Assembly (NCBI GenBank): GCA_965113315.1
Contig: OZ220364.1
DNA from: Podarcis vaucheri
Lineage: Eukaryota
Direction: 5' to 3' (one strand)
Length of the DNA: 64,000 nucleotides
Position 1 is the stretch's first letter; each line of letters starts with the position of its first letter. Positions 9,601 through 64,000 of this stretch are shown here, one piece after another. Below the pieces are notes generated by a model. The model saw only the letters and a program-made list of their open reading frames with translations. It was not told where the DNA came from and did not search any database. A program made the translations under genes and the position numbers.

Positions 9601-10330
9601 AACCACCCAAAGGCTTCCTGAATTGGATATTCTCAGTGGGTGTTTTTTGGGGGGGAGGCGGTAAAAGAATGAGGCGCCTCTACTCATATAATGATAAAAG
9701 TGTTGTGGGTGCCAGCACAAAATGGCTGCCATGTGCTGCAAATGAATAAAATAAAAAGAAGGGCTGGTACTCTATATCCAGTGAGTACTTTAGCAGAAAG
9801 AGCCATGGACATGCTAATCTAGGGCGTTGCCAAATTTCAAAACCTCCATAGAAATACAATTTCGTTAACCTAATTTAATTTAATATAATGGAGAGGGTGA
9901 AGCATCATTAAGCAGAATCATTACCATATTGGCCCGAATATAAGCTGCACCCAAAGAGTGGTGTCGCAAGCTGGGGGCAGGGGGGGCGGTGCGCCCTGTG
10001 TTCCATGTCTGGGGGGATGACAAAACATCCCCAGGTGTCTTGGCACCCCGTGGGGTGCTTGCCCTGCTGCCCCGGCCTGGGCCTGTCAGCACGAGCAGCC
10101 ATCGCACCGCCGCAGGCAAATGTGGAGGATCCTCTGCTCATGGCTGCAGCTGCGAGCAGAGGATCCCACCACCGTCCATACGGCTCTCTGGTGGCAGCGG
10201 CGGCAAACCGCTACATACAACGCATGCACTGTCACACGCATGCGCTGTGCATACCGATGCCACACATGCGCTGTACATAGCGGTTTGCCACTGGTGCCGC
10301 TGGAGCACCGTACAGACACGGTGAGATCCC

Positions 10331-13064: not shown

Positions 13065-13439
13065 GTAATGGCTACCTGTGGTAACTTAACCCCAGAGCAT
13101 GCCCAAGCGGGTCATATTTGCAAGGACAATACCACAGCCTCCGTTTCCTTGCCAGGTGCCTTTCTCCCGCATTTTGCTTTCTGTTTTGGTGGTTCTGTGT
13201 TAGCATGCTGCACTCTGCATGTCCTACTGGTGCTCTGCTCACTGCTTGTTCAGTGTGATACTGTGCTATGATTCCTGTTTATTTATAGATATCTATTTCC
13301 CGAGCGGCTACTGTGGCATATCCTGTGTGCATGCGATCGGTTCCTTGCTTTCTTTTAATCCATTGCATGGCTTCATCCTGGGGTACATTCCCAACTGTGG
13401 ATGAGGGGATTGACTGTGATTTGTTTTTGGTTTCTGAAG

Positions 13440-14275
13440 CCTATCACTTGGGTCAGGAGGAGACAGACTGGTTTGATAAGCCGAGGGAACCTCGTTCGGA
13501 GAGGATGAGGCATTATGGTGGCCACTCCTCATCCTCCCAAAGGAGGGGTCCAGTTAAGCACACCTATCACGACTATGACGAGCCCCCGGATGAAGACATG
13601 TGGCATCACGATGACTACTCTCACCCGCGACACTCCTCTTCCAAAGAACACAGGCACCATGGAGACTACGGGAGGCATTCGTCCTCCTCCCGGCACTCCA
13701 CCGATGACCTGCCAAAGAGGTCATCCAGGCAACATCCAAGAGATGCTGGCCGCCACGAGTCACGCGGACATGGGCAGCCCTCTTCCCAGAAGAAGGCTCA
13801 GCAGGCCGATATAAGAGCGCAGCCAGGTTATCCTTCCAGCTCCTCAGAGTACTCCCAGCAGTCTCGGCAGCCGTCGGGCTACCATCATACCTCAGAGTCC
13901 CAAAAATCGCAGAGGCAGGTGCAACATGGGCCGCCATCTCAGCAGCCAAAATCGGAGCCTCTTTCGCACCAACAGCAGCAGCAAGCGAGGCAGCAGCAAG
14001 TTGTGCAGCAGCAGCAGCAGCAGCCGTCATCCAGGCAGCAGCAGCCGTCGAGCAGACAGCAGCAGCAGCAGCAGCAAGCAGCTCCCTCGCAACAATCTTC
14101 TCAGCAACAGCAACAGCAAGCTAGGGTGCAGCAGCAGCAGCAGCAGCCACCGCCAGCAGGAACCCAAGCCCAGCCCTCCTCACGGCCAGCCCAACAACAG
14201 CCTGGCCAAGCCCAGCCAGCAGGCAAACCCCAATCTGCCCTCCAAGCACAACCTGGCACTCACCCAGCGGGACCA
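13440..14275 (+). CDS. BSN: Bassoon exon (His-rich and poly-Gln region)
   Basis: Phase-1 join gives SE-A-YHLGQEETDWFDKPRE; donor CCA|gtaagt, phase 0. Confidence 0.95.
13971..14146 (+). repeat. Interrupted CAG/CAA tracts encoding poly-Gln blocks
   Basis: Q5, Q6, Q7, Q6, Q6 blocks separated by AR, PSSR and similar spacers. Confidence 0.9.
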
Positions 14276-14874
14276 GTAAGTACCTATGTGCCTTTGCTCA
14301 GGGTCAGTTATGCAGTAGGTCCCTCAGAGCTGATGACAGCTTGTTTTGCCCCATGTCAGGTGAGAGGGCTGGGCTAAGCAATGGCCTGTTCTACAGTACA
14401 GGAGTCGCGCTGGGATTGCCTCACCTTAGAATGTCAAAGCAAGGTGGACTGTGCATTGTACAGTCTAGGTCGCTGTGGAGAATGGAGTCTTCCCAGCAGA
14501 GAGGAGGTTCATGGAACTAACAATAGGCTGCAGTAAGTTATAGAGGGGGCAATTCGGACACAGACAAAGAAGAAGGGAGGGAAGAGGAAAGGAAAGGAAT
14601 GCACTTAAGGGAATTGCCTTTGTATAAGAGCTTTATATGTAGCTTTCTTGATGGAGATCACAGGCAGTACCTCAGGAATCCTAGAGGATGGGGAGTATCT
14701 GGTGGAGAATAGGGTGGGTGGATAAGAATTGCTGTGAGACAGCCAGGATGACCTGGCAGTTAAATTCTAGGAAGAAGGCTAAGAGAAAGACCCCAGGAGA
14801 TGGGCTTCATTTTACCATTATTCGTTCTCATTTGCAATAAATAAATACATAAATCACTGTTTGCTATATTACAG

Positions 14875-17750: not shown

Positions 17751-17888
17751 CAGGCTTCCTCAACCTCGGCCCTCCAGATGTTTTTTTGGCCTACAACTCC
17801 CATGATCCCTAGCTAGCAAGACCAGTGGTCAGGGATGATGGGAATTGTAGTCTCAAAACATCTGGAGGTCCGAGGTTGAGGAAGCCTG
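17751..17888. mobile_element. hAT-type MITE, 138 bp
   Basis: TIR caggcttcctcaacctcgg / ccgaggttgaggaagcctg; 8-bp TSD ctcttaac. Older relatives near 26761, 27265, 31610, 47130, 62440. Confidence 0.9.
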
Positions 17889-37103: not shown

Positions 37104-37316
37104 CAGTCATACCTCATGTTACGTTTGCTTCACGTTACGTTTTTTCAGGTTGCGTCCCGCGGTGACCCGGAAGTGCCAGAAAGGGTTACTTCCGGGTTTC
37201 GCCACTTTCGCGTGCGCACAATCGCCAAATCGCGCCACACACCTGCGCAGATACAGCGCTTCAGGTTGCGAACGGGCCTCCAGAATGGATCCCGTTTGCA
37301 ACCAGAAGTACCACTG
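37104..37316. mobile_element. Tigger/mariner-type MITE
   Basis: TA-cagt...actg-TA ends with imperfect TIRs, CpG-rich interior. Confidence 0.75.
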
Positions 37317-37444
37317 TATATATTAGCTGGGTCATTATGCATCTGCTGTTGTCTTCCAACCTATCTTAACCCCGCACGCTGGAGATGTGCTAGAGTCACC
37401 CGCCTGCCTCTCCACACCTGACATGGCCTTCCCTTCTCCCCCAG

Positions 37445-45893: not shown

Positions 45894-47976
45894 ACACACC
45901 TGATTGTCTAAGACTGCTCACTCCTGACTTTTGAGAGGCTGACTTGCAAAGTGTAATTCTTTATAGAGATTGGGAACAACTGGGGCTTGTCAACTACTGA
46001 GATGCAAACTTTATTGAAGAGTACTGGATATTTTTTTGAAGAAGAGATAACAGGTCTAGCAATTTTTTGACTCAAAGGGAAAAGAGGTAATTCACAAAGA
46101 GGATTTGTGGAATGTAATGCTCAACTATTGCTTTTGCTCTTCAGAACTCCTCCCATCCAGCTTATAGCTACAGATGTCACCAGGAACTAAATCCCAAACT
46201 TATCATAGTGCATATGAACCTCTCATGCTGTGTTGTCTCAGGACAGATTCCTGCTATATCATTTTTCTCTTGTATATACAGGCACTGTTTTCTCTGGTGC
46301 TTCCTGATACATTATCATGGAAGCAGACTCTACAGTTGGTCTTTCTCTTGAGTAGAGGGGGAGTTCAGGGACCCATTACCCCATCTGCTGCTGGTTTCTG
46401 TTGGGAACTGAGAGGTGGACTATCAATAGCCACCTTAACATTCTTGTTATTTTCATTGGCTTTGTCTCATCCCTTGTCAATTTCCCCCTATTATTATTGT
46501 TGTTGTTATTATTATTATTATTAAAATGTTTATACCACCCGTCATCCAAGGATCACAGGGCAGTTTACAGTATAAAAACAAACAAAACAACACACACCAG
46601 TTTAAAAGGCCATAGAATGTCTAATTAGCCTTGAATTCTTGAAAATACAAGTATTTTTTCTTTATTTATCTATCCATTTAAGAAACCTTAAATGGAACAG
46701 GAGGACATCTGATATTAGGGTACTTGAGTGTATCACTAATTACCACCATTCTTTTTAAATACATCCCGTTAAAGTTCCTGTTCACCTGTTCCTTCAGTTC
46801 TGCTTTACATAATCCCCAAAGTAGCCAAAAACCTTCAGGACAGATTAGTTGGGTATTGTTAATACTTCCTGGGCTTTGAAGATGCTCAAACTCAGGACAA
46901 AAGGGAGAAACTTACTAAGAGGAAGGCACATTTGACAAACCCTCACCATGATCAACTCCCGCCCGGAAACCTATGTCCCTGCTGTGGAAGGATGTGTGGA
47001 TTGGCCTCCACAGTCACTTACAGACTCGCTGTTAAAACCATGTTTATGGAAGACCATCCTACTTGGCTACGAGTGATTGCCAAAGAAGAAGAATACCTCC
47101 ATTTGTAAAGCAACCACTTTTTGTCATGGGTTGGGAGCCTGTGGCTCTCCCATTGTTGTTGAACTCTTGCTCTCCTCACCCCCATCTATCGTGGCCAATA
47201 GGTAGGGTGTCCCTGTAGGGGCCAAAGGTTCCTCATTCCTTTAAGATAGCTGCTTTGCATTTGTGCTGGGAGCCAGGTAACCAGATTTTGAATGCCTACT
47301 AAATAGAAGATAGTGTAGGATTAATCACGCCACAATTTCCCAGTATTTTTGCTATTTTCATTCTGAGGGCTTGGGTCAGATTAAAATGTATTTTGATTCT
47401 CATGCTGTGTTCTGTTGGTTAAATTGTCCACTTAGGCCAGTGAACAGAGCTACAATTTAACTTGAATCTCCTATATTCACAGTCTGCCTCCTGTATCCCA
47501 CTGCTTTTTCAGCAGTGCTGCATAAGAGTAATTGGTTGCATCCTTTGCGTTCTCCATAGGCTGTAAATGAAAGCGTTGTAACAAATGAAATGTTGCCAAG
47601 AGACCGCTGCTGAAAGCACCACCCTGATCCCATCACCTTCCTTTAGTTCTGCTGCTGCTTCCAGGGGATTGACCTTCCGTTGAGAAAATGTCTTGAGGGA
47701 GATGCACACACCAGTATGACTTGTTAAATTGTGCGCAGTTGTGGGTGAGACAGCATGAGCTTATCTGATATATCTAACACCAGGTTCCCTCACAGCGGGG
47801 GACTATAGAATGGAGATTGGGGTCTGGGGCTAGGAGCGAGTTTTATTCACAGTAGCTGGTGTTTCGAGCGTCTGTGTAATTGCGTTCTCGCCACCTGTGC
47901 GGTTTCCCTTCCTCCTTAACATTGTTTTACTCTCGCCCTTCCAAGCAGCTTGCGACAGGGCAGCGTGCAAGCGTGG

Positions 47977-49343
47977 TTGCGTGTCAAAACCCCTCCCCCA
48001 GAAAGAAAGACACAGGACACAATGTTTAAGTTTAATGGGCATGAAATGGCCACAACTTTATTGATTAGAGAATTGAAGGTATTGGCCCTAGGCATTGGCT
48101 CCTATCCGCTACCCGGCATGATGTCCGGGAAGGGTTAACACTAACCGTGGGAGGCCCCCGTTGGAGTACGCCAACTAGGATCCCACGGGTGTCACCGCTT
48201 GGGGCGTGCCGGGGGCCCTTACCTAGGTAGGTTTCGGACAAGACAACGCCCCTCGGAGTCCTGTACCGGACTACCCCATTTCCTGGGGGAAGGTGATGGC
48301 GTTCCTTCCCCCCCCCATCCATTTGCATAACAATTGAACCCCAGCCAATGCCTAACCGCCAATACAGGGAAAGTTGTGACGGTTTGCTACGAGGTAGGCG
48401 AAAAAACCAAATGGCGGAAGATCGCCAACTTGGAAAAATTCCTACCAGGCCCCTTGCGGCGACCAACCGAAGTCCATAGCAAGGTCATGACTACCTACGG
48501 CTACCTAAACGTCTAAGGGTGGGTGGGATGGGAAAACCTCTCAGCTGGTCGGGAGTGAAGAGGGCGGACCCTGGGCGTGCCCGGCTTAAAATACCTTAAG
48601 CCACGCCCCCCTGGCCCGCCGATAGGCGGGCGGGGTCGCGAGCACGCCCAGGGATTCCCCCAACTCTCGCGGGGGCCAAGGTTAGCCCCCGCGCTTGGGG
48701 AGGAGGGGCTAGACCGCAACCCCCTCTCCTCCCCATAGTCGGAAATGGCTTTGCGTGTCAAAACCCCTCCCCCAGAAAGAAAGACACAGGACACAATGTT
48801 TAAGTTTAATGGGCATGAAATGGCCACAACTTTATTGATTAGAGAATTGAAGGTATTGGCCCTAGGCATTGGCTCCTATCTGCTACCCGGCATGATGTCC
48901 GGGAAGGGTTAACACTAACCGTGGGAGGCCCCCGTTGGAGTACGCCAACTAGGATCCCACGGGTGTCACCGCTTGGGGCGTGCCGGGGGCCCTTACCTAG
49001 GTAGGTTTCGGACAAGACAACGCCCCTCGGAGTCCTGTACCGGACTACCCCATTTCCTGGGGGAAGGTGATGGCGTTCCTTCCCCCCCCCCATCCATTTG
49101 CATAACAATTGAACCCCAGCCAATGCCTAACCGCCACTCGAGCAAAGCTCGCCGCCAATACCTTCAAACCTGTAACCAACTCCTACGCCCTGCTATGGAA
49201 ACAAGAGTAATTTAATTCGGGCGGGGTCGCGAGCACGCCCAGGGATTCCCCCAACTCTCGTGGGGGCCAAGGTTAGCCCCCGCGCTTGGGGAGGAGGGGC
49301 TAGACCGCAACCCCCTCTCCTCCCCATAGTCGGAAATGGCTTT
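47977..49343 (-). mobile_element. Non-autonomous split-direct-repeat element, probably Ngaro/DIRS-like (tyrosine-recombinase retrotransposon derivative)
   Basis: 385/386-bp repeat at 47977-48361 and 48751-49136; 126-bp repeat at 48627-48752 and 49218-49343; AATAAA on the - strand (48057-48062, 48831-48836); no TSD, only TT microhomology. Repeats are certain, family is inferred. Confidence 0.7.
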
Positions 49344-49821
49344 CTCACGTACCCAGCAACCCTGCAGGTCAGCTGAAGTGAGTGAATGGTTATGAGAAAA
49401 AGGAAGAAGCAAAACTTTGTTGTTGTGGTTGCTTTTATTATGGGCAGGGAGGGAGACCCCGATACAGTCAGTTCTCAGTGGGATCCTGCGCGTCTCACAG
49501 GGATCAGAAACAGCGCCGTCGGTCCCTCAGCTGTGACGAACACAAGCCTCCCCTTCGCGTGTATCTTTAAGTTGAGTTGCCTGCCTGGAAAAAAAGGAGC
49601 GGCAGGATCGGGGGCAAGAAAGGCCGCCACCCCTTCGGCTGGGCCTTCCCAGCAGGAATTTCCAGGGGGAACCGCGAGCAGAGGCCTGGCTCTATCCCCG
49701 CCTCCTCTCCCCGCCCGGCCAATTGCTGTCGGCACCGCCCGCTTCCCGCCCGTGCGCTGTGCCCGCCCTGCTGCCCCGGGACAAGCGCCTCTCGGGCTGC
49801 TTCGGGGAAACTTCCAGGGCG

Positions 49822-49854
49822 ATGGCTTCTAGAGCGGAGCGGGCGGAAGAGGCG
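49822..49854 (+). CDS. APEH-like exon 1 (MASRAERAEEA)
   Basis: gcgATGG Kozak context; GCG|gtgagg donor, phase 0. Confidence 0.7.
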
Positions 49855-49962
49855 GTGAGGCTGCGGAGCAGGGGAGGAGGGCGCTGGTGGGGGGGGAAGC
49901 AGGTGCCGCCGGGCAAGCGCCTCCATTTGCCCTGAATAACGCCGCCTCTTCTCTCCTTCTAG

Positions 49963-50095
49963 CCTCCAGCGGGGTCGGGTCCTCTGGGCGCCCTGTACCG
50001 GGAGCTGAGCCGGTTTCCCCGCGTGACTTATGCCAGTGTAGGAGTCGGGTTTGCTGCCTGCGGCGACGCCGCTGAGTGCCTGCCCCTCTACACGG
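49963..50095 (+). CDS. APEH-like exon 2
   Basis: GALYRELSRFPRV...LYT, homologous to AALYRELSQFPSL. Confidence 0.85.
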
Positions 50096-51308
50096 GTGAG
50101 CCAGTTGCGCGGGTTAGGCGCTCTCCTTTCCCGGACCCCGCTTCAGAAAAGCCGAGGTTGTGTGGACAAGCCCAGTGGGAGGTCGGGCTGAGCTGTGGAT
50201 GGGCGGGCAGTTTCCCTCCCCGTTCTCTTTTCGACGGGCATCAGCACTGCTCCATTAAAAACACTGTCACATGGAATTAAAGTAGTGAACAGCATGTTGC
50301 AAGTGACTCAAGCCCACGCTGGGGAATAGACTATGTTTATAAACCCAGAGAGTCTTCTGCTGGTTTCCTCACTTCCAGAAGTGAAGTTACAAAGAGACTT
50401 TTTCTGTAGTGGCTCCGTCCCAGTGGGAACACCTTCCCTTCAGGTGTCAAGACAACTATCTGACTTTTGGTGCTTTTTGAGTTTGGTTATATATATACCT
50501 GGTCCTTTGCTGTTAATCAATTGTTTTAAAAGCAAATATTAATATGCAGTGCCGCCCGCTTTGGGCATCTCAGACCCCGAGCCAGTTAAACATGGAGTTG
50601 CAGTGGCCTTCCATTTGAACTATGTCATAGAGAGAGGTTGACATAAGACAGCCAGGACACCTCTTACTTGGTAGCAGGTGAGAAAAATATTGGATTGCCC
50701 CCCCCCCATCTCTTGCCTGTTACACCTCTGGGATTAGAAGTATCATGGCATGGAGGTCAGAAAACTAAGTTGCCTTTTCAACAACCTGCCTCCATTGGGG
50801 CCTTGTCTTAGGTCCGGAGGAGAGGAGTTGGCCCAGTCTTTTAGAAACTCTCAGCTGTGTTGTAATCATATGCACTGCAAAAAGCTGACTTCACTGTGTA
50901 AGAACAACACCATCCCAGCCCATACATCTCAAGTTTGCAGTTACTTCCAAGTTAAAAGATGATGTGTAATTTATAAAAAGAAAAAAACATTTATCACATA
51001 TGCTGAATGCAAGGGGGGAAGTGGCTGCCCCCTTTTTATATGGTAAAGTAAGAGACTTTATGATGTCAAATTAGGAGCCAAATATTATAAGTAACCTGAT
51101 TTGAGACTGTGGTTAAAAAAACAATGTGCTATCAGGCCTTGCAGCATCTCATGGCAACTGACAGTTTTCCTGCAGTGAAAGAGATGTTTGGGATGGGTTG
51201 TCACTGCCCACTTGCTCTACTGGCAGGAAGTAGAATCCTCCAGGAGGAGCTACCTGAGTGGGCTGGGCAACCTCTCTCAGTATGCTAATATTCAAACCTG
51301 AGAACTAT

Positions 51309-51442
51309 GTTACAGGTAGGTAGCCGTGTTGGTCTGCCGTAGTCAAAACTAAATAAAAAAAATCCTTCCAGTAGCACCTTAAAGACCAACTAAGTTAGTT
51401 CTTGGTATGAGCTTTCGTGTGCATGCACACTGCTTCAGATAT
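51309..51442 (-). mobile_element. Penelope-like element pLTR fragment
   Basis: 11-bp TSD ctgagaactat (51298-51308, 51443-51453); gtagccgtgttggtc...gaccaact...agctttcg...cttcag pattern typical of vertebrate Penelope ends. Confidence 0.75.
51404..51442 (-). ncRNA. Minimal type I hammerhead ribozyme motif, likely impaired
   Basis: - strand reads UAU-CUGAAGC-A-GUGUGCAUGCACAC-GAAA-GCUC^AUA; core position 9 is C rather than A. Confidence 0.6.
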
Positions 51443-52693
51443 CTGAGAACTATAATCAGTAATGTGGCAACCAAGAGCTGTAAGGGAGGAAAGCTTAATG
51501 GGCTGGAAATGAATATAAGAGAGATGGTCATATAGACAGGGAAATAAGAGAGGGAAACCCCTCTCCAGACTGCAGGATAAGGACCCCTGTTTTAAGTATG
51601 CTGACAGTACACATCTTTATACACCTGGCTATGGCTGATCCTAGTACCTACAGTAGCAGAATATTACCACTGGGCAGGCCAACACCCCTTCTCACTGCAG
51701 AAAAAGAGCTTAACACAAAGTCCAACATTCTCTTTTCCTTCAGTGGAGGAGGGGAGTCTAGGATGAGTTTGGGTGCAAACTATGTCCCTGTGACCTGATA
51801 TAACACCTGAAGGAAGCCTTTGCTGACATATATCTGTCGAGAGGCAGCTCTGGTAGAGGTGGCAGCTCCTAAAATCTCCCCTAGGAGAGCCCTGGTCCCA
51901 AATGTGGCAGAAGTGTGCTATGATGCTCTGGGTGGCTTTTCTTGGTGTCCTTGCCTTGAACAGAGTCCCCCAAACCCTCCAAAAAAAGTTGCTATCTCAA
52001 TAGTTCCCACACAGAAAAATAAGTATATTTCCACTTTTGCTGCTCTGCCTGGTGTTGGTGAGAGTGGAAAGTGGGTCTTGAGCATATGTAGGTCCCATGT
52101 TAAGATGAAGCTGCAAAGTTGGCCAAGAATCTCACAGCCTAATTTGTATTGAATGCTAATGATTTCCAGCTATCTGTAGAATGTCAAGTGCCTGTTCTCA
52201 GTTAGAAAAATGTCACTTATGCTGAATTTGCAGCATGAAAGAGGATAACTGCATTATGTGTGACCTCTAAACAATGATAAGCAAAAATGTCTCTTGAAAT
52301 TACCAATTCCAGAAGTCTTTAGTGAGACCCGTTACTCATGCTGTTTACTTGCAATTTCAGTTTTGATGAGCTGCACTTTCCCTAAATGTCTCTAAACACA
52401 GTTAACTGTCATCTCTCACAAGATTAATTCTGGTATAACACATTCTCAACTCCTTTATTGCTGGATGAGGTGCTGTTTCTCCCCGTAGCTCTACAGTCAG
52501 TTCTCCATTTCTGAACTCTGGTTGTCTTAATCATGGTGTCTTGGAGCAGAATCATTGTCTCTGTCTTGCTGGCTTTCTGGATTTTGTGCTTCCCACAGAT
52601 TTCCACATAAAATTCAGAAACAGCAGTACTACACACTGGGATGGGAGATTCCAAGGCTCAGATACCCGGTCTTACCTTCCTCCTTTCCTGCAG

Positions 52694-52820
52694 AGTGGTG
52701 CCAGCCTGACCTGGGGCGCCGTCAGAAGCTGCATTTCAGCCGTCAGTATATCCTACACCACAATAGCAGAGCAATTGTCTCCGTTACTCCTGTTGGCGTT
52801 CCAGCTGAGATCCGGGACCA
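52694..52820 (+). CDS. APEH-like exon 3
   Basis: EWCQPDLGRRQKLHFSRQYILHHN; 127 nt as in APEH. Confidence 0.92.
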
Positions 52821-53615
52821 GTACGTAGAGCATCCAGTTGCCCTTAGCATACCTAACCATGCTTTAGAAATTCAATCCAGACTTGGATTGGGATAACCTG
52901 ACACAAGATAAAATATAAACCAGAGTAAGGATAATCAACTTTTCCCAAGGAACCAAGATAGGTCAGAATGGGTTGTTTTCAAGGGGATGCTTTAAGAGAA
53001 CATAACTTTTTTTGCCTTGGTGACAAATTGTGCTACCCTATTACTGTCAGCTGTAACTGGCATCAGTTTCCGCAAGTCATAGGCCAAGATCCTTCTTTGT
53101 GCAACCTGAAAGTCTTCTACTGGGAGTGATGGGAATCATAGGACTGCATATAAACTATTTAGCTCCTTTCCAGGTTTGAGGGTTTTCCTTAAAGAAGAAG
53201 GAAATAAATGGGCTTTAACCAAATGACCTATCTATTGGTTTACTTGCACAGATTTTAAGCTTTGTTTTAGGGGCAGTTATGCAACAATGAGTGCTCATCC
53301 TGACTTGACTTTGGGTTGTTTATATATCATCCTGTCAATTTGCTCGTCCCATACTTTGTGATGTTAGGAAAGTGACAGGGAAATGAATTTGAAAGTCCTT
53401 TAGAAAAAAGTGGATTTGTTGCGTTAAGGTAACAGAGTGCTTTAACCTACTTGAATTGTGCACACCTAAAGTTTTGGTGTGTGCTTGAATCCCTCCTGAA
53501 AAACACTGATGGCCTTTGGTGGGGTGGGGGGGATGGGAGTAGGGTGTCCTTTGGTTTAAAATGCCTCTCAGAGCTGGCTCTGCTGCTCATGTTGTCCCTC
53601 TCTCCTTTGCCACAG

Positions 53616-53703
53616 ACTGCTGATCAGAATGTCACCCACTGGGATGCATAAGGCTGTTTTCACCCATCACTTGGAAATGGGGCAGAAGCAGGAAGTGATA
53701 GAG
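53616..53703 (+). CDS. APEH-like exon 4
   Basis: LLIRMSPTGMHKAVF...QEVIE. Confidence 0.88.
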
Positions 53704-54568
53704 GTAAAATGGTGTGTGTGTGTGTGTGTGTGACAGTAAAGTGCATGCTAGCTAGCAAATACCCGTCACACCTATAGAGCAAGGATGGTGCTGCAAAGAC
53801 TTATTAAATGCTTTGTGTAGAAAGAGTAGGAATAGTGTTGCTGCACCCAGGCATGTGTATTTGGAATTTTGTAGGAATATAATTTTACAATGCTGTATAC
53901 AGCCATCCGCTTGTGGGCTGTTATTATGTGCATTATAAAATATTGTGGTTTTAAAATAAAAAAAGAGTAATTTTGGTTTGGAGAATTTGGTGGGCTGAGT
54001 GGGTTTTTTATTATTGCTGGTTCACTGGGGGTGTTTTGTAGAAATAACCTTGTATTTTACATTTTAAAATTGATGCTGTTGTATTATTTATTTATATTTT
54101 ATAATGTAAACTGCTTTGAAAGAGTTATTCTCAGGAAGGCAATCTATAAATATTTTAAATAGAAATAAAGAGTCAAAGCTGGTTACTACAAGCCTCTGGA
54201 TAAAACAGAATAACTTGATAATTGCCTTTTTGTTAACATGAAATCTGAGTTTCAGACACGGATGAGAAGGAAGGAAGTCTGCCGTATTATGTGTGAAACA
54301 TCTAGGGAATCTGCCTTTATGGGGATACATAGACAGACCAAAGGTGGGGGATTACATGCACAGTCCCTTTGGACTGGTATCACTGGGCACATGTCTCTTA
54401 AAATCTGGCACTGCCCTCCCTCACCTCTTCAGCTCCCCCATCTTCTTCAGTCCTAGCAGTGGAGTCAGGGAAGAAAGTGGTTATGGTGCTTGAGGAAATG
54501 TAGCAGGCCTGTTGATATTGCATGGTAGTGGTGGGCATTGGCCTGTGATGATTTCTGCTTCTCGGCAG

Positions 54569-54644
54569 GTCTGGAACAAGAGTGGAAGGGTGAGAAGCAT
54601 TAATCTCACATCACTGGATAAACACGGCAGAGTATACACAGATG
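54569..54644 (+). CDS. APEH-like exon 5
   Basis: VWNKSGRVRSINLTSLDKHGRVYTD; 76 nt. Confidence 0.93.
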
Positions 54645-55427
54645 GTAAGGGCAAAAGAAGTGGGCTTGGCTGTATCCTGCTACTCTGCAGACAAAGCAAG
54701 TGATGTTCCCTCAGTCCTGTGTGCCCTGCTCTCTCCCAGCACAACACTTGCTCATGCTTCTTCCTATTAACATCCTCTCTCTAACGCCAAAGGAGAATTT
54801 GGTTATCCTACACTATATTCTTTCCTCTTTTACTGCCCTTTCAGGCATCTCTGGGTGGCGTTCTTAAAAGGTCCTCCCTAACTCTCACTGGAACCAGGTT
54901 TTCAGATCTTAGTGACAAGGCTAGGCTGAACTGCTTTGGTGAATGTCACACTAGCCATGCATCTAGGTCACAAAGCACACACGCCTTTACATGTTTCTGT
55001 CTGTGAAAACGGTCTGAGGTAGAATTCTGGTGAGGCCACATTCATATTTAAATATGCAGCACAATGCTACTTGAGATTTCACTGTCTGCCCTACTTGCTT
55101 AGCTTGGCCTTTAGATAGCAAACCCTGAGCTCTTTGCATCTTAAGCATCAAACTTCCACAAAAGGGGGAGCTTGCTTTTTAGGCACACATTCTCTTTTTT
55201 ATATAACAACAGGAGCTGCTGCCTCATACTAGGAGTGCTAATTCCCCTGCAATGGCTTTGGGGAAATATCAGATCAGTCAGCCAACCTGTTACCCATAGT
55301 TGTGTGCTCAGCATTATGAACTGCTTCTCTTCCCACTTGCATTCTGCTTTAGTGAGAGGGGTCAGCCTTTACCCTTGCCTTTAAGGAAGATCATTGCCTA
55401 TTTTCCTTTCTGACCTTATGCCACCAG

Positions 55428-55564
55428 AGCAGTTTGGGTGTGTTGCCTGGTCCAGTTCAGAAACACAGATCCTTTATGTCGCTGAGAGAAGACGCCCCAA
55501 AAGGCAACCACTTTTCCCTCAAAGCAGGTCCCCCCAAGGAGAGGAGCCAGGTGAAACAAGAAAG
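55428..55564 (+). CDS. APEH-like exon 6
   Basis: QFGCVAWSSSETQILYVAERRRPK. Confidence 0.9.
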
Positions 55565-55635
55565 GTATCTACTTTTTATTATTCGGCATTGAGATGTTTA
55601 TACTGTGCCACATGCTTTACCGTCTTTATTCTGTC

Positions 55636-56424
55636 ATAGAATCAGAATTGTAGAGCTGGAAGGGGCCCCAAGGGCCATCTTGTCCACCCCGTACAATGAA
55701 GTAATATCAACTACAGCATCCATAACAGATGCCATCCAACCTCTGCTTAAAAACCTCCAAGGAAGGAGAGTCCACCACCTCTCAAGGGAGTCTGTTCAAC
55801 TGCTGAAGAGCTCTTACTGTCAGAAAGCTCTTTCTGATGTTTAGTTGGAATCTCCTTTCTTGTGACTTGAGTCCATTGGTTTGGCTGCTACCCTTTGGAG
55901 CAGGAGAACAGAAGCTTGCTCCATGTTCATGTGACAGCCCTTTAGACACTTGAAGTTGGCTATCATATCTCCTATCAGTCTCCTCTTATTCAGGCTAAGC
56001 ACACCCAACTCCCTTAACTGTTCCTCATAAGGCTTGGTTTCCTGATGCTTGATCATCTTGGTCGTCTCCTCTGCACACATTCCAACTATTAAATATCCTT
56101 CTTAAATTGTGGTGCTCCAAACTGGACACAATATTCCAAGTGTGGTATGACTAAGGCAGAATAGAGTGGTACTATTACTTCCCTTGATCTGGACACTATA
56201 CTTCTGTTGATGCAGCCTAGAAGAGCATTAGCTTTTTTTTTTGCTGGTGCATCACACTGTTTGGCTTGTGGTCTACTAAGAACCCTAGATCCTTTTCACA
56301 TGTACTGCTGGCAAGCCTGATGTCCCTCATTTTATATTTGTGCAGCTGGTGTTCCTGCCTAATTGCAGAACCTTATATTTGTCCCTATTGAAATGAGTTT
56401 TGTTCATTTTCTTAGTTTGAACCC
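55636..56424 (-). mobile_element. CR1 LINE 3' fragment
   Basis: KPYEEQLRELGVLSLNKRRLIGDMIANFKCLKG ORF2 C-terminus; ATTCTATG terminal repeat. Confidence 0.85.
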
Positions 56425-56425
56425 A

Positions 56426-56603
56426 GCAGCTGCTGGGTGACCTTGGGCCAGTCACACTTCTCTGAAGTCTCTCAGCCCCACTCACCTCACAGAGTGTTTG
56501 TTGTGGGGGAGGAAGGGAAAGGAGAATGTTAGCCACTTTGAGACTCCTTAAAGGGAGTGAAAGGCGGGATATCAAATCCAAACTCTTCTTCTTCTTCTTC
56601 TTC
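56426..56603 (+). mobile_element. 5'-truncated copy of the same SINE with (CTT)n tail
   Basis: Reverse complement of 4423-4590. Confidence 0.85.
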
Positions 56604-56883
56604 TCCAGTCTGTTAAATTGGAAAATAGGGACACTTGGATGGTCTGAAATAGTCACATTTGACTTCAAAAGAGGACCAGTGGTCAGGGATGATGGGAGTT
56701 GTAGTCCAACAACACTGAGGACTCAAGTTTAAGAAACACTGGCTTAGAGAATAGTTTGTGGATTAAAATTGCAGATAAAGTCGTGCTTATGGAGGCATAA
56801 CTGCAGAGGTTGTCTGCAGAAAATTCTGGTGAGTGAAAAAAGCCTTTGCATGACATTGAGGCCTATATGTCTTTCTCATGGGA

Positions 56884-57250
56884 AACTCTATACCTGTATT
56901 CCTGAAGGAGCGTTTCCACCCCCAGTGTTCAGCCCACACACAGAGATCAGCACCGAGGGCCTTCTGGCTGTTCCCTCACTGCAAGAAGTGAGGTTACAGG
57001 GAACCAGGCAGAGGGCCTTCTCAGTAGTGGCGTCCACCCTGTGGAACACCCTCCCGTCAGATGTCAAGGAAATAAACAACTATCTGACTTTTAGAGGACA
57101 TATGAAAGCAGCCCTGTTTAGGGAAGCTTTTAATATTTGATGTTTTTTCATATTATTATTATTATTCTGTTGGGAGCCGTACAGAGTGGCTGGGGAAACC
57201 CAGCCAGATGGGCGGGGTGTAAATAATAAATTACTGTTGTTGTTGATTAT
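56884..57250 (+). mobile_element. L2 LINE 3' end
   Basis: RAFSVVASTLWNTLPSDVK...ALFREAF ORF2 end plus AT-rich tail. Confidence 0.8.
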
Positions 57251-57300
57251 TATTTGGATCAGGAATCTTCACAAGACCTTCCCCTCTGCTTTTTTTCTAG

Positions 57301-57438
57301 GAGGAGCACTTTGTATACCATGACAATTGGGGAGAGGCACTGAGTGATAAAAGCTTCCCTGTCTTGTGCGTGGTGAATGTTGAAACCAGTGAAGTTTCAG
57401 TGCTAGAGGGCATCCCAGGGCATATCTCACCTGGACAG
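57301..57438 (+). CDS. APEH-like exon 7
   Basis: EEHFVYHDNWGEAL...HISPGQ; 138 nt. Confidence 0.93.
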
Positions 57439-58379
57439 GTTAGTGCAATGCAGCATGGGAATTTAATGGGACACTCCTCAAGCCACCATGGATTGCAAGC
57501 ATTTCAGAATAATGAAGCAAGATTTAAATTAATACAATGGGGGGAGGAAGTCTCTGACCCATTTGCTTTATTTGGCTTGCAGAAGAATGCATGAAGCGGA
57601 CATACTAGGTGTCCTGGGTCCTAGAGGTGGTTCTGAGCTCACAAATTGTATTTCTCTTGATGATTCTTGCACTTTTTGCACCCTTAGCTTTTGAATAGTG
57701 TTGAACTGACCAAGGGAATCTGACAGTGGCTTTCCATATCCTCCTAGAAGGCGTTTTTTCAGAGCCAACTTTCCCTCAGCCCAGAAAGAGGCTTCCATGT
57801 ACAGGCAAAAACAGGCAAACCATCTCCCAACCCATCATGTTGTATGTTGCAGTTGATGATCTGTTTGGTACAGAATGTTGTCACATTCGCTCCCCACTTA
57901 AACATAGAAGTTCACATCCTCTCTGTTTCATGCAAAAAGCATCTTTGCAATGGGTGGAACCATGCATACTGCTAAAATTTTAAAGGTAGAAAGTTGCTGT
58001 TTAAATAAATTGGTGCTGGAGTACAGAGGTTTATTCATTTGTGCAACATCAGTTCAAGCGCTAGAGGCTGGAGCTCAGCAGAAGCCTGCTGGAGAAAATG
58101 CTGCTTTCTCAGATCCATCACCTGACCCTTCATCATATGCAGAGGCAGATACATACCTCCCATGCTTTCTGCTTCCAAACACTTGTAACAGTAAAGTAGT
58201 CTGCTGCCTGCAGAGCCCTGAAGATTGGAGCATCTCCCAGTAAACAGCCTTGTTGAATTTCAGCCGCTGCAGCAGCATTCTGCAAATCTTGCGGGGAGAC
58301 AATGGAGACGTAGCTTGGCCCATGGTGCAGCACACCCAGATGTGAATGGGTAATATTTTGCTTTTGCTTCCCTGGCCAG

Positions 58380-58471
58380 GCCCTGTGGTCCCCAGACGAC
58401 AAAGGTATACTGTTCGTTGGCTGGTGGCACGAGCCCTTCAGACTGGGGTTGAATGCTTGCTCCAACAGAAG
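58380..58471 (+). CDS. APEH-like exon 8
   Basis: ALWSPDDKGILFVGWWHEPFRLGLNACSNR; 92 nt. Confidence 0.94.
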
Positions 58472-58767
58472 GTAGGCAAGGTCTCAGTCACTCTTAAGTG
58501 TGAAACCATGGATTCAGCTCTCCAGTTGGCTGTGCCAGGACCAGCCACTGCTTCAGGGGAAATTATGAGGGCAACATTTTGCTCAGTTTAGAGGAAAAAA
58601 TAAAACAAAAGGGGGGGGGAATACATGTCCTGAACAATAATGAGATCTTAGTCGGTGATCTCGGTGATCATTTCTAAAAAGTAGAAACAACAGAAGTGAT
58701 ATTCTTGGGTTTGGAAGGAGCCAAATGGGTTATTTGTTAGTCCAGCTCCACCCCTGTCCTTCCTAAA

Positions 58768-59016
58768 AGAAGAAAAAGAAGAGTTTGGATTTGATATCCC
58801 GCCTTTCACTCCCCTTCAGAAGTCTCAAAGCGGCTAACAGTCTCGTTTCCCTTCCTTCCCCACAACAAACACTCTGTGAGGTGAGTGGGGCTGAGAGACT
58901 TCAGAGAAGTATGACTAGCCCAAGGTCACCCAGCAGCTGCATGTGGAGGAGCGGAGACGCGAACCCAGTTCCCCAGATTACGAGACTACCGCTCTTAACC
59001 ACTACACCACACTGGC
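58768..59016 (-). mobile_element. Young tRNA-derived SINE, same family as 4423-4668
   Basis: High identity to 4423-4668 over ~245 bp. Confidence 0.85.
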
Positions 59017-59348
59017 AAGGTGTAGTATAGACTATATCTATATGATTCCTGATGGGTGACAGCCCATATTTTCCTTGGTGAAAACTTCCAAGGAAATGCA
59101 TTCTGCTTCTCTAAAGTAGCCTGTTCCACAATATATATATATATACAAATAACCATGAAGGTTTTCCTAAATCAATGGAAGGTTGAAGGGAAAGCCTCAA
59201 GATCCTCAGCTTCACTATATTTTAAGTGCAGAGTGTGAAAATTTAATCCTATAGTTACTAGTATTTAATTCATCATGGGTTGGGTGGGTGGGTGAAAAAC
59301 CTTGCCCCTGTTAGAGACGTCTCACCCATTCCCCTCTCCCTGCCATAG

Positions 59349-59389
59349 GTCAGCCCTTTTTCTCTTCGATCTCTCTGAAAGTAGCTGTG
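59349..59389 (+). CDS. APEH-like exon 9
   Basis: SALFLFDLSESSC; 41 nt. Confidence 0.9.
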
Positions 59390-60408
59390 GTAAGTCATCT
59401 TGGAGGCAGCTTATCTCTTGTCCCTCCCTGCAGCATCTTTCCTTCCCATGTTTCTCCAACAATGGTGGTGGTGGGGTGTACCTGTAGCTTCTCAGTCATT
59501 TGGAGCCCTGGGTGGATTTCCTGACAGTGACAAATGTTTGCACAGTTGGTCAGGGCTATCACATTCAAATATGTCAAGCATTCTTTGTTGTAACTTCACA
59601 AATGGACGCATTTCAGCAGAAACAACTTTTCCTGCCTTAGTACTGCAAAGAAAGAGCAACCGTGACTGCCAAATTTACAATCTGTGTGTATGTGCAAGCC
59701 AGAAGAGCCCAGTCTTCCATAAAATTCTGCAGCCCAGGAGAATCTCGGTTTTGCAGCTTAATTTGCCTTTTGTAAAGGAGCTTAAAAATGCCCAGAGATA
59801 TGGCCTTCTAATGTTTCAGCAATCAGACATGTGGTTTGCATGGCCGGATTTCGGTTTGATGAGGCCCTAAGCTACTGAAGGTAATGGTGCCCTTTATATG
59901 TCCAGCTGCCCTTTGTCAACAACAAATTGTCACTGTTTTTTGTGTTGAATATATGCTATATGGTACTTTATGGACCTAATAGGTCCAAACACAGCACAAA
60001 ATGCTGTTGCTGTATGTAGGTTTTATTTTATTTGTTTTTTTATCTTATATATTGGAAATGTACATCCAGATTTTTTTTCTTTAAATTTTTTTTTTGGGGG
60101 GGTCAAGAGAGTGGGGCCCTAAGCTATAGCTTGTTTAGCTTATACATAAATCTGGCACTGCCTTTAGAGGTTACTAGTTTCAAACTTACTTTGCTTTCCA
60201 AAGATGTCTATAGTTTCTTCAGTCACTATTGCTCCTTTCTTATATCTTTTTTTTTTTTCAAAATGTGAGTAAAGAAACGTCAGAAGAAGCCTCAGAGGTA
60301 AATTTGCAGAGACTTTTCAGAAAAGGAATTCAGATCGCTCACTGTTAATGTTTTTCTAATTTCATCACCTGGGGACTTCTGGCCAATTGCCTTTATTAGG
60401 TTAAAGTA

Positions 60409-60728
60409 CAGTGGTGCCCCGCAAGACGAATGCCTCGCAAGACGGAAAACCCGCTAGACGAAAGGGTTTTCCGTTTTGGAGGTGCTTCGCAAAACGAATT
60501 TCCTATGGGCTTGCTTCGCAAGACGAAAATGTCTTGCGAGTTCCTGCGGGGTTTTTTTCCCCTCCCCCCCCCTTTTCCCCAAGCCGCTAAGCCGGTTATC
60601 AGCTGATCCGCTAAACCGCTTATCAGCTGATCCGCTAAGCCGCTAATGGGCTTGCTTTGCAAGACGAAAAAACCGCAAGGCGAAGAGACTCGCGGAACGG
60701 ATTCTTTTCGTCTTGCGAGGCACCACTG
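60409..60728. mobile_element. Tigger/mariner-type MITE
   Basis: 22-bp TIR cagtggtgccccgcaagacgaa with one mismatch, TA TSD, internal 24-bp tandem unit. Confidence 0.9.
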
Positions 60729-60800
60729 TATTCTTTGCATATGTAACTCCACTTCAATGGATCTGAATGCTCTGCTGCTGCATTGTGTCTGTGGTTGCAG

Positions 60801-60922
60801 AGTTGCTGTCCTCAGATTCCAAGGCTGTTTCCTCTCCCCGGCTCAGCCCTGACGGAACTCGCCTGCTATACCTTGAGTGCCCTGTATTTGGGCCTCATCG
60901 CCAGTGTCTGAAGCTACAGATG
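60801..60922 (+). CDS. APEH-like exon 10
   Basis: ELLSSDSKAVSSPRLSPDGTRLLYLE; 122 nt. Confidence 0.94.
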
Positions 60923-61302
60923 GTAAGTGTGGCACTTCTGATAGGTAGTTGCTTGGAAGAGAAGGGACTGTGGGTGCAGGCAGGTCATAATAGCAAAGGA
61001 ACTGTGGAATTTGAAATGAGTATGCAACAACAACAAAAAACATTTAGAGAGTAGAAAAGCTGAGTTCAACATGGCCTTATTATAAAAAGTTAAAATGATA
61101 CAGTTCTTAAACACAACTAATTCTGATTGCAGAATTAAAACATTGTAGAATTTAGCATTTATTGAAAGATGCTTGAAGGGGAATTAGCTTGGAATCGACT
61201 ATTGAAAAGATGCAGAGCAATTGGTCTGTGGGATGCAGTGGAGGAGGAGTGTGAAGTTTGCTGCTTTGTATTCATTACCTGATTTTTTCCCCTCCTGCTT
61301 AG

Positions 61303-61363
61303 CTCAATTGGCAAACTAAGCTCACATCTACAGTGGTGGACGTAGTCAGGACTGCCACATCTG
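61303..61363 (+). CDS. APEH-like exon 11
   Basis: LNWQTKLTSTVVDVVR; 61 nt. Confidence 0.9.
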
Positions 61364-61659
61364 GTAAGTCTCAATTTCAGAGACTGGGCATGCAAAATTA
61401 GAGTTGCTTTTTTATCGTCTTGCCTCTTTAGTTCATACATGTCCTACCACCCAGCTCCTGCTACCACATACAAAAAGAATGCTAAGGCTTGCTTTTGTTA
61501 CCCAAAAATGGAGAGTCCTGCAGTCAGCCATATGCCTCCATATACACTGTATTCCATCCAGTGTGTTTTTATAATATCTGTTTGATGTTGTTCTCCAACA
61601 TTTCTCCAAAGCTCCAGACTTCAGCCATGTTTTACTTTAACCATTTTCTCCCTTTTCAG

Positions 61660-61754
61660 GGTTTTTGGGGATTTACTCAGGGGCACTGCCTCTGCTTTGT
61701 TGGGCTGCTGACAACCACAGAGTCCTGCTTAGCACTCCTCAAAGGAGTAGAAAG
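61660..61754 (+). CDS. APEH-like exon 12
   Basis: FLGIYSGALPLLCWAADNHRVLLSTPQRSRK. Confidence 0.92.
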
Positions 61755-62486
61755 GTATGCTGAGCCCAGAAGGGAAGACTTTGGGGTGTGAAGATGGTGT
61801 GCCAACAAAAGTTTGCAAATCAGTTAATGCTTTCCACCATTCCTGAGAATTTGCAAGATGAATAGGAAGATGTTCAGGTTTATGTAGCATGAATGCAAAA
61901 CCATTGGCTTTATAGAAAGTGTGTGTGTGTGTGTGTTTTCATACATTTGTCTTCCACCAATAACCTCAGAACAGAGCTTTAAGACTCACAACAATCTCTA
62001 TGATGTAGGTTAGGTTTAAATATTGTCGTGACCTGCTCAGTGAGCTTTGTATTTAAACAGGGATTTGATCTTGGCTTCTCCATGTCCTAATAAAGCACTT
62101 TTGCCACTCAGATACACATTTCAGAAATGTAAGAGCCAAGCTTTAATTACAGCTGGGGAACGTGAACCATGTGTACTGAACCTGAAAAGGCTCATAAGGG
62201 TGTAAAAAGTATCTGTTGGAAATCAGAGATGAAGAAACTGTGATTGAGAAGCTGGCATACAGGAGGCCTCAAGGCAGCAGTGGCTTTACTTCCCTCACTG
62301 CCTTAGACAGACAGTAGCATGGGATCAAACTTGGAACTAATTTACCAGTTCCTGAGCATCCTCCCCAGTTCCTTCCCTGCCTTACCTAGGAACTGAGCCC
62401 CTAGTCTTTCTCTAGTCTTGGATTACTTCAGAGGCAGCAAAAGTTGTGTCCTCCAGATGCTGCTGGACTCACATCATCCCTGAATA

Positions 62487-62728
62487 CAGTCATACCTTGG
62501 TTCTCGAACAGCTTAGTTAACAAACAAATTGGCTCCCAGACGCCGAAAACCCGGAAGTAAGTGTTCCGGTTTTTGAACGTTTTTCAGAAGCTGAACGTCC
62601 GACGCTAATTCCACTTGAGCGCAGGAAGCTCCTGCAGCCAATCGGAAGCTGTGCCTTGGTTTTCAAACAGTTTCAGGAGTCGGATGGATTTCCAGAACGG
62701 ATTAAGTTCGAGAACCAAGTTTCCACTG
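62487..62728. mobile_element. Tigger/mariner-type MITE nested in an hAT MITE
   Basis: TA-cagt...cttggttctcgaac / gttcgagaaccaag...actg-TA. Confidence 0.8.
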
Positions 62729-63233
62729 TATGCTGGCTGGGGCTGATGGAAGTTGGAGTTAACACTATTTGGAGTGTTACATTTCTTCAAGTGGCTACAG
62801 CACATTTCCCCCCAGGGTTACACAATAGATTTTGGACATACTGTGGTTCCAATCTGCGTCGTTCCTGCCTCAGAAGGATGTTCTCTGCCTTTCTTGTTCT
62901 CTGTGCTTTGACTCTCCATCAGGATACAGAACTGGGGATGCAGAACTGGCCTTAGGACCTTGCTAGTTAGTGCAAAGTTTGATCATGTATCCCTGCCTTT
63001 GGTGACTGGGTTAACACATTGTTATTTGGAGGGTTCTTGCACACCCACTGACAGGAGCCTTCGTGGTAGGTGGCCAGTGTTCCAAAAATGGGGAACACTG
63101 TATCTTCTCTGAGATGATGTATGAGGAGGAAAGTGAGAAAAAGCTTTTTTCCATTATTAAGTTTCCATGGGCTCTTGTAATAGAGCAGCCGCTTTCCCAG
63201 CCCTCACTTTCCTTCCTTTATCATCTCTTGCAG

Positions 63234-63285
63234 GAGCTGCTGGTTGTGGATACCGAGCTGGGGAGTGTGAAGGCTCTTACAGAAG
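63234..63285 (+). CDS. APEH-like exon 13
   Basis: ELLVVDTELGSVKALTE; 52 nt. Confidence 0.9.
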
Positions 63286-64000
63286 GTACAATCAAATCTT
63301 AGCTTGCAAAGTCCAGGGGCCGTATTGTGTTTGCTGAGATCTGTCCCAAAGACCAGGCACGTTAAGTGAGAAGTCTCCCATATCCTGTATTTCTGCCCAT
63401 TTCCGAGATCTCAGGGAAAAGGAAGGGGCTAGAAGGCTAAAGCCAAGCTCTTCCACTTCCTGTATGCTGGCTTACATTCTCAGCAAGAGGCAGCCACTAC
63501 TAATCCATGCCAGATCTAGTTCCCTTGCTTTATAAGGGGTCTTTTTTTGAGGCAAATGAAGCTAGAATATTGGTGCTAGGCTACTACTTCTGTTCATTGT
63601 GTACATATTTTCTATATGTGTATAGAACTGGCCTGAGCTACATTTTGCATCATTCCTCGCTGGGGCCAAAAAGCCTCCTGAGTGTTGCTTGCTTGCTTGT
63701 TCTCCTATGAGGCAACCAGCACTGTGTCACATCTGTAGTTGTAACCCATTAATTGTGTGGCACCTAGATGTTTTCCATTGAGGTTATGATCCCAATGTGG
63801 GGTCCCACTGAGATTGGATACGAATGTACCCCTGAGATACATCAGTAAAAAGCTCTGGCAGATCCTTCGATGCTGTTCAGAATGAGAAGGAATTCTGTGA
63901 TCCTATGAGTAGGCTTCTTTGCTTATGCTTCAGCTCCCAGGAGACTCTTTCAGAGAGTTGGGCCTTTCATCACTTGCTCCATTCAGAACATGGTTCCTGT

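Follow-up and report, generated by a model that had tools for sequence, protein, structure and literature searches.

How does a stretch of DNA that encodes no recognisable protein come to carry two pairs of interleaved, nearly identical direct repeats and, in its interior, a join between its own right and left ends? The question is raised by positions 47977-49343 (1367 bp) of a 64,000-nucleotide stretch of Podarcis vaucheri (GCA_965113315.1, contig OZ220364.1), called the window below. We find that this element is best explained as a recently inserted, non-coding derivative of a split direct repeat (SDR) tyrosine-recombinase (YR) retrotransposon, of the architecture known from Ngaro, PAT and VIPER, that was moved by proteins acting in trans; we put the probability of this at about 0.8. 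A preliminary description of the same letters had already named a non-coding SDR element with recombinase-type junctions, and this part stands. Its narrower label, Ngaro, says more than the layout allows, as SDRs are common to Ngaro, PAT and VIPER and are homoplastic.

Repeat order, junctions and coding capacity

Realignment reproduced the plus-strand repeat order of the preliminary description with all of its coordinates. The parts are as follows, the names A and B being those that apply if the minus strand is sense.

47976-47978, plus strand: left junction trinucleotide GTT, the putative target-derived copy of a 3-nt crossover core (model in PMC7192593)
47977-48361, minus strand: R1a, terminal long repeat (B2), 385 nt, 99.5% identical to R1b
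48362-48626, minus strand: spacer X between A2 and B2, 265 nt, its R1-adjacent part folding at z -3.3
48627-48752, minus strand: R2a, internal short repeat (A2), 126 nt, with hairpins at 48668-48693 and 48696-48735
48750-48752, plus strand: internal TTT junction, right end joined to left end, the presumed circle-junction template
48751-49136, minus strand: R1b, internal long repeat (B1), 386 nt, with AATAAA at 48836-48831
49137-49217, minus strand: spacer Y, 81 nt, where open reading frames (ORFs) would have stood, with a 13-nt hairpin and 6-nt duplication at the B1 border
49218-49343, minus strand: R2b, terminal short repeat (A1), 126 nt, possibly truncated at 49218
49341-49343, plus strand: right junction trinucleotide TTT, the putative element-derived core

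The R1 copies differ at one CpG (C48107 vs T48881) and in one C-run (C9 at 48308-48316 vs C10 at 49082-49091), and the R2 copies (99.2% identity) at a single CpG (C48670/T49261), exactly as described before. BLASTN recovered the repeat matches within the window at E = 0 and 6e-60, and found no further copy of the element elsewhere in the 64 kb. The spacers are unrelated: their longest common word is 8 nt, a length that 20 of 100 shuffles reach, and Tandem Repeats Finder (TRF) reported no tandem repeat over the element region, which bears out the earlier statement that this is not a plain tandem duplication. It may be noted that 10 nt at the R1 border are common to X and Y (49137-49157 vs 48356-48365).

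The junctions also agree with the preliminary description. The internal TTT is the right element end joined to the left end, and the three junction trinucleotides, GTT, TTT and TTT from left to right, each have the same element-side neighbours. Over 15 x 16 choices of boundary the longest flank duplication was 3 nt and was found only at displaced boundaries; there is therefore no target-site duplication (TSD). The empty site that we obtain is the one given before, and in an alternative parse the trinucleotide on the left comes from the target and that on the right from the element itself. Such a parse follows the trinucleotide-junction model in which one copy is taken from the target (PMC7192593, section 26), and two element ends that differ by one base are described for several DIRS1-like elements. 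As side observations, the pentamer that starts the element repeats twice at 8-nt spacing in the left flank (47958-47983; 49344-49349 on the right), and a 5-nt core in the putative empty site is flanked by a 4-bp inverted repeat; these may be recombinase target mimicry.

Under the published model of DIRS-order replication, the source RNA would run from inside A1 to inside B2, most likely in minus sense, and would then be reverse-transcribed. The internal B1/A2 junction would template the two missing ends and give a circle with a TTT junction, which a YR would cross with a GTT target to leave a left GTT and a right TTT, all proteins presumably being supplied in trans by an autonomous SDR element. 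The SDR replication scheme is itself cited as a proposed model (PMC6681497), and for DIRS-1 the primer of reverse transcription is given as unknown (PMC7192593, section 26). The start of R1 was considered as a tRNA primer site and dropped, with no tRNA gene found by ARAGORN and no tRNA-like 3′ end seen by eye.

The element is ORF-less, as first described. Among its 11 stop-to-stop frames none matched a Pfam family at the cut-off (one sub-threshold match, E 0.042); the longest frame (139 aa, minus strand) had no relative among 469 candidates, a 98-aa frame gave in Atlas only leads below 0.9, and all three minus frames across Y contain stops. None of 10 weak Rfam matches reached the gathering score, with no ribozyme among them, and no hammerhead core motif was found. 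BLASTN against plasmid and phage collections gave no match, hence no sign there of vector or phage contamination, and a scan for bacterial promoters and terminators, which is unsuited to a vertebrate, gave nothing useful.

One frame (48331-48513) was used as query against 1.84 billion proteins and gave a single match, P0121 (73 aa, 509-nt record, E 4.5e-5). The matched region is:

48340-48487, plus strand: end of R1 with the initial 126 nt of X, where P0121 matches in one frame and then in the next

Residues 7-46 align with 48340-48456 and residues 50-59 with 48458-48487 in the next frame, and since the match is collinear over two frames we take P0121 to be a spurious ORF in homologous DNA that does not code. 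At the least 6/51, 6/36, 1/30 and 9/30 base changes are required, against null minima of 18, 11, 8 and 9 in 5000 draws, so that the segment crossing the R1/X border equals the null minimum and the other three lie far below random. Similarity is lost beyond 48487. Judged from this match, the element has diverged kin elsewhere. CpG sites account for several of the differences from P0121, which suggests that the copy is older and was methylated. A tetraloop UUCG within X was set aside as a chance-level occurrence, and the matching residue differs in P0121.

Pairing of the spacers with the repeats

Segment 49154-49179 of Y is complementary to 48835-48860 of R1b over 26 nt, which the preliminary description did not contain. 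As minus-strand RNA 24 of the 26 positions pair (22 Watson-Crick and 2 G-U) around a 14-nt perfect core; this 14-nt exact complement is reached by 1 of 300 shuffles and by none of 771 window 81-mers, and the duplex has z -3.8 on the minus strand (0 of 200 shuffles) vs 0.04 on the plus strand. The Y:B1 pairing is real beyond chance, and to regard Y as a plain deletion remnant overlooks it. The helix spans the 23 nt upstream of the internal AATAAA together with its first three bases, and is stacked on the outer side of a 12-bp stem by which most of R1 is closed. The element has no canonical hexamer other than AATAAA, which each R1 copy carries once, on the minus strand, at about 80 nt from the end of the repeat; neither AATAAA nor ATTAAA occurs on the plus strand of the element. 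The features concerned are:

48057-48062, minus strand: AATAAA in the terminal long repeat with a GT/T-rich tract after it, the candidate for the poly(A) signal in use
49154-49179, minus strand: Y segment complementary to B1, overlapping the start of the internal AATAAA, a candidate read-through switch
48089-48354, minus strand: 12-bp stem of 48089-48100 with 48343-48354, closing a multibranched domain of about 245 nt (R1b equivalent, 48863-48874 with 49118-49129)
48358-48378, minus strand: stem extensions at the R1/X border, 48358-48365 with 48079-48086 and 48370-48378 with 48051-48059
48569-48653, minus strand: A2:X three-way junction, a 15-bp stem of 48569-48583 with 48639-48653 and hairpins at 48583-48602 and 48614-48631

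X pairs with both neighbouring repeats. On the R1 side, the partner of 48370-48378 comprises the last three bases of AATAAA and six downstream bases, so that X in the terminal copy forms 8 bp, then leaves a 19-nt unpaired loop containing AAU, then forms 9 bp with what remains of the hexamer and the six bases after it. The 9-mer of X is reached by 7 of 2083 window 30-mers when restricted by position vs 135 of 300 shuffles without restriction; it is significant only when position is taken into account. On the A2 side, a 12-nt exact complement is reached by 2 of 300 shuffles, and hairpin 48614-48631 crosses the A/X border, with the result that the three-way junction cannot form at A1 (R2b). X with R2 folds at z -5.5 on the minus and -4.7 on the plus strand, and the Y+B1 domain also folds on both strands (z -5.6 as minus RNA, -4.8 as plus RNA, -5.0 as plus DNA). 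R1 alone folds weakly (z -1.5 to -1.65): in local 120-nt windows strong folding is found only over X/A2, with z down to -6.2, and within R1 the values are unremarkable. In the background, for which 266 of 519 such windows were run, 2 of the 266 were lower than z -6.2. The element has 30 stems of at least 7 bp, which does not exceed the background maximum of 31 (72 tiles). From the pairings neither spacer looks like debris. In Y an extra 21 nt (the 6-nt duplication around the 13-nt hairpin) bulges out of the long helix, and the repeat border may have shifted through a small insertion there.

The position of the Y:B1 helix suggests a role in the choice between two identical poly(A) signals. B1 and B2 share one signal, and the upstream spacer would set the fold of each copy: Y would close, in B1, the 23 nt that precede AAUAAA along with the first three bases of the hexamer, X would leave the stretch open in B2, and the transcript would read through B1 and end in B2. 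We modelled the cost of opening the signal at six nascent-RNA lengths, with ends 0-80 nt past the hexamer. Opening -20 to +5 around AAUAAA costs 13.7-15.2 kcal/mol in A1-Y-B1 vs 3.7-5.0 in A2-X-B2, and the real Y lies above 12 of 12 shuffled Y sequences at both lengths tested; a newly emerged hexamer is half-paired in B1 and open in B2. Several results of the same calculations weigh against such masking. For the hexamer alone the cost is 1.1-3.1 kcal/mol in B1 vs 0-2.4 in B2 (difference 0.3-3.1), and it is cheaper to open in B1 at one of the six lengths, and at four of six in shorter constructs. The downstream GT/T-rich tract differs little between the B1 and B2 contexts. Also, in the equilibrium fold of the entire RNA, a calculation confounded by the repeats, Y pairs with B2 instead of B1, and the switch therefore requires co-transcriptional folding. 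We thus advance only tentatively, and at somewhat less than even odds, that Y masks the first poly(A) site so that the transcript passes B1 and ends in B2; the pairing may instead serve priming, packaging or cDNA folding.

Structure-based occlusion of a poly(A) site has a precedent in retroviral 5′ long terminal repeats (LTRs), where one signal is present twice and RNA structure has been proposed to silence the first. Here the part of the masking strand would fall to a unique spacer, which lies about 300 nt upstream and closes a large domain; the effect is a predicted one. Spacer-based poly(A) choice between identical repeats is an idea new here: in the passages reached by full-text searches (Repbase, Dfam and subscription journals lying outside them) nobody proposes that a spacer masks a poly(A) site in SDR elements, which is a weak absence.

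Polarity, class and rival explanations

Split direct repeats A1, B1, A2 and B2, with B1 abutting A2, are present in either orientation, and A1=A2 and B1=B2 are near-identical at 99.2% and 99.5%. The layout A1-[ORFs]-B1A2B2 is described for Ngaro (PMC8547959, PMC9210276, PMC6681497), and the same papers bear out the earlier statement that such retrotransposons combine split repeats with the lack of a TSD. SDRs are common to Ngaro, PAT-like and VIPER-like elements and had more than one origin (PMC4157794), and being homoplastic they cannot name the superfamily. Of the PAT-like, TOC and VIPER-like traits we find the SDRs and the absence of a TSD; ORFs for reverse transcriptase (RT) and YR, and for the methyltransferase of PAT, are absent. 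With no ORF to place it, we do not class the element as Ngaro and say only that it works in the manner of one. For VIPER, the described range is confined to kinetoplastids (PMC9210276). The A2-B2 spacer is 265 nt if the minus strand is sense and 81 nt if the plus strand is, and may in part be repeat lost from A1 or B1.

Compared by description only, Ngaro-like elements (Xenopus DIRS-53_XT, Cafeteria Ngaro 1-4) share the order A1...B1A2...B2, near-identical copies of similar size and occurrence in vertebrates, but have gag, RT/RNaseH and YR ORFs (in amphibians also SGNH) and a length of about 6 kb, whereas our element has none of these ORFs, is 1.37 kb long and carries a spacer between A2 and B2. 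Internally (ORF1) deleted Ngaro copies and solo AB repeats are described (PMC8547959). Also on record are the non-autonomous SDR elements of Ectocarpus, Ngaro-N1_Ec32 (7756 bp), PAT-N1_Ec32 (9475 bp, 118 copies) and unknown2-N1a_Ec32 (4243 bp; PMC12477816), which have no functional ORFs and a TSD of 0; unknown2-N1a has the layout A-gap-BA-gap-B, exactly that of our element. They contain internal tandem repeats or a pol fragment, and the present element is 3-7 times shorter and has a vertebrate host. TOC1 of Chlamydomonas, several kb long, is likewise non-autonomous with SDRs, but is PAT-like and from a green alga. It is described as an active non-autonomous DIRS retrotransposon (bioRxiv 10.1101/2022.06.16.496473), and TOC elements as having SDRs and belonging with PAT-like ones (PMC4157794). 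SIRE of Trypanosoma cruzi is the A2-to-B2 part of VIPER, non-coding, without TSD and of questioned mobility (PMC6681497); our element differs in keeping four repeats and the internal junction. DIRS1-like elements, including Anolis AcDIRS1/2, resemble it in the 3-nt NTT-type junction, the lack of a TSD and a stretch of their interior that is complementary to a repeat. Their terminal repeats are inverted (ITRs), and they carry a complementary region in the interior that matches the termini, whereas here the repeats are direct, there is no terminal inverted repeat, and Y pairs with an internal part of R1, so membership of the ITR type was rejected. A zebrafish 'DIRS-N1' appears by name only in PMC5400779. 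The same full-text searches brought up no miniature four-repeat SDR element in a squamate, again a weak absence. The element is thus a new, unusually small variant of a split-repeat architecture that is itself already known.

The minus strand is probably the sense strand, as the preliminary description had it. We favour this since AATAAA with its GT/T-rich tract occurs only on the minus strand and the z value of the Y:R1 duplex is significant only there. Several facts weigh on the other side, and they are the ones that would fit an element of the same class read in plus sense, with A = R1, X the deleted ORF region, B = R2 and Y a short A2-B2 spacer. The NTT trinucleotides lie here on the plus strand (GTT/TTT/TTT), and 23 of 28 DIRS1-like elements have NTT on the sense strand (Table 3), though that rule comes from ITR-type and not SDR elements. 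In Xenopus DIRS-53_XT A is longer than B (236/152 bp; PMC9210276), a proportion that matches the plus-sense assignment, and A2 and B2 are drawn adjacent in Ngaro (PMC8547959), nearer to the 81-nt spacer. The Y+R1 domain, like X with R2, folds significantly on the plus strand too, and the G-U strand bias over all stems is only modestly toward minus (interior 4 minus to 1 plus and terminal 12:7, with backgrounds of 32:38 and 462:499). DIRS-1 makes single-stranded cDNA (PMC7192593), on which the minus folds could act, AATAAA then ending antisense transcripts. Such a plus-sense element would lack AATAAA and ATTAAA on its own strand and would have its Y:R1 duplex significant only in the RNA that it does not use, and we regard it as unlikely.

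A copy of the same origin could also be dead, a full-length SDR element that lost its A1 end, ORFs and promoter in one event, by a template switch in reverse transcription or by deletion after insertion, in which case the 49217/49218 junction would be private to it. Here the promoter is the weak point of a mobile miniature. X has two GC-box-like motifs and a TATA-like motif, and the 126-nt A1/A2 repeat has kB-like and GC-box motifs, all of which we take to be such from the consensus. The 126-nt A1 contains no clear promoter, and the sole TATA-like motif is in X; with the hairpin and the 15-bp stem cut by the A/X border and so formable at A2 only, A1 may be truncated and the true A longer. The earlier claim that all cis ends were kept is thus not upheld. 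The window has only one copy of the element, and Ngaro copies with internal deletions are known. Against the derivative moved in trans itself count further results: gag, RT/RNaseH, YR and SGNH ORFs are all absent from the element, a follow-up profile search returned among 9 candidates P0121 itself only, and none of 10 ATG-started spurious ORFs was present by exact look-up in a collection of 15 billion, a result uninformative as a proxy for copy number. However, in a dead copy all of the coding region would have gone while the repeats stayed near-identical and the Y:B1 helix intact, and non-autonomous SDR families do amplify (PAT-N1_Ec32, and TOC1 as described). We therefore hold a dead copy possible but somewhat doubtful. 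Far less probable are two short R1-spacer-R2 monomers set head to tail, the second having entered at the recombinase site with which the first ends. They would formally give the same order, SIRE and solo AB repeats offer parallels, and both CpG changes lie in the right-hand unit; yet this would take two events and a pair of subfamilies whose spacers are unrelated although their repeats are 99.5% identical, a monomer lacks the internal junction from which its ends could be restored, and one SDR insertion gives all junctions at once. Least weight of all goes to a derivative of an LTR retrotransposon, an endogenous retrovirus (ERV) or a terminal-repeat retrotransposon in miniature (TRIM), to a plain tandem duplication or satellite, or to an assembly artefact. 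LTR-type elements have a 4-6 bp TSD, a primer-binding site and a polypurine tract. R1 does run from TG to CA at 47978-48361 and holds a poly(A) signal, but the element itself ends in R2, with no TSD, no TGG primer site behind either end in both R1 copies and no purine tract ahead of them. Unrelated spacers and a silent TRF speak against a satellite or tandem origin. The base differences are CpG transitions, and mis-assembly would not give Y its complement to B. A retrozyme or Penelope pseudo-LTR was rejected on the absence of a hammerhead or other self-cleaving ribozyme (Rfam and core motif). A splice-acceptor-like stretch in Y was likewise dropped, there being no donor consensus in the element.

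Age, genomic setting and meaning

At non-CpG sites paired between the repeats we count 0 substitutions in 455 (95% upper bound 0.33% per copy), which on assumed rates of 3e-9 to 1e-9 per site per year would make the insertion younger than about 1.1-3.3 My; the earlier description as very young holds on these rates. The base differences between repeat copies are all CpG transitions, with a chance of about 0.001 if changes were uniform. CpG is undepleted in the element, with an observed/expected ratio of 0.67 vs 0.28 for the window, and its flanks are CpG-rich on both sides (0.74 and 0.61), consistent with insertion into one continuous island edge. It lies between two APEH genes at the upstream edge of a CpG island with its core at about 49.6-50.2 kb, some 250 bp away. 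The first APEH gene ends near 45.6 kb, to the left. The second, APEH-like gene stands in tandem with it (70-78% nucleotide identity in aligned exons) and was located in the window part 49344-64000 by APEH_N matches at 57301-57591 and 58314-58472, from a scan that took 150 of the 200 frames of 42 aa or more listed to the right of the element. The island is presumably the promoter of this second gene, and upstream-antisense transcription from it would enter A1 in minus sense. The promoter of the first APEH gene, tried as an in-window empty site, did not align over the junction. The bassoon ORF at 10913-13084 marks the host as a squamate, its best four hits (91, 90, 88 and 87%) being all squamates, with turtles at 77-79%. 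In a published table that does not separate Ngaro (PMC6050309, supplementary file 11), 66 of 66 squamate rows have a non-zero value for DIRS-order repeats.

Other features of the window include the bassoon (BSN) 3′ exons at 10913-14377, with a CAG-rich poly-Q stretch at 13975-14150, and an element at 17751-17888 like a miniature inverted-repeat transposable element, with 34-nt inverted arms 97% complementary and fold z -12.4. A short insertion between 10-bp direct repeats lies at 51297-51450, which we take to resemble the Penelope-type short repeats of lizards. A young dispersed repeat occurs at 4455-4665, 56426-56599 and 58767-59016 (93-95% identical), two of its copies being inverted, 2.2 kb apart, inside the second APEH-like gene. 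Inverted or structured short repeats at 10174-10317, 37201-37322, 60424-60670 and 62479-62736 are probably DNA-transposon relics.

Returning to a derivative moved in trans, we lean slightly toward the 1.37-kb form being itself a multi-copy family. That it is an active miniature family, the counterpart of TRIMs among SDR elements and a minimal cis kit in which Y silences the B1 poly(A) site and X frees B2 and locks A2, is rather improbable on present indications. YR retrotransposons are among the least understood retroelements, and a cis-only element of 1.37 kb maps which sequence must be kept. The pairing of spacer and repeat gives a concrete and cheaply testable role in the choice between two identical poly(A) signals; if true, it would supply the missing explanation of how SDR transcription passes the first B, and the element a 1.4-kb substrate for the first vertebrate mechanistic assay of the class. 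The match to P0121 also indicates that searches with spurious ORFs are usable as a proxy DNA search for non-coding eukaryotic repeats. With neither ORFs nor the usual terminal repeats nor a TSD, such elements are probably labelled unknown or LTR by annotation pipelines, and a squamate family would easily be overlooked. Near a promoter, and with kB-like and GC-box motifs, this insertion may be a recent regulatory polymorphism.

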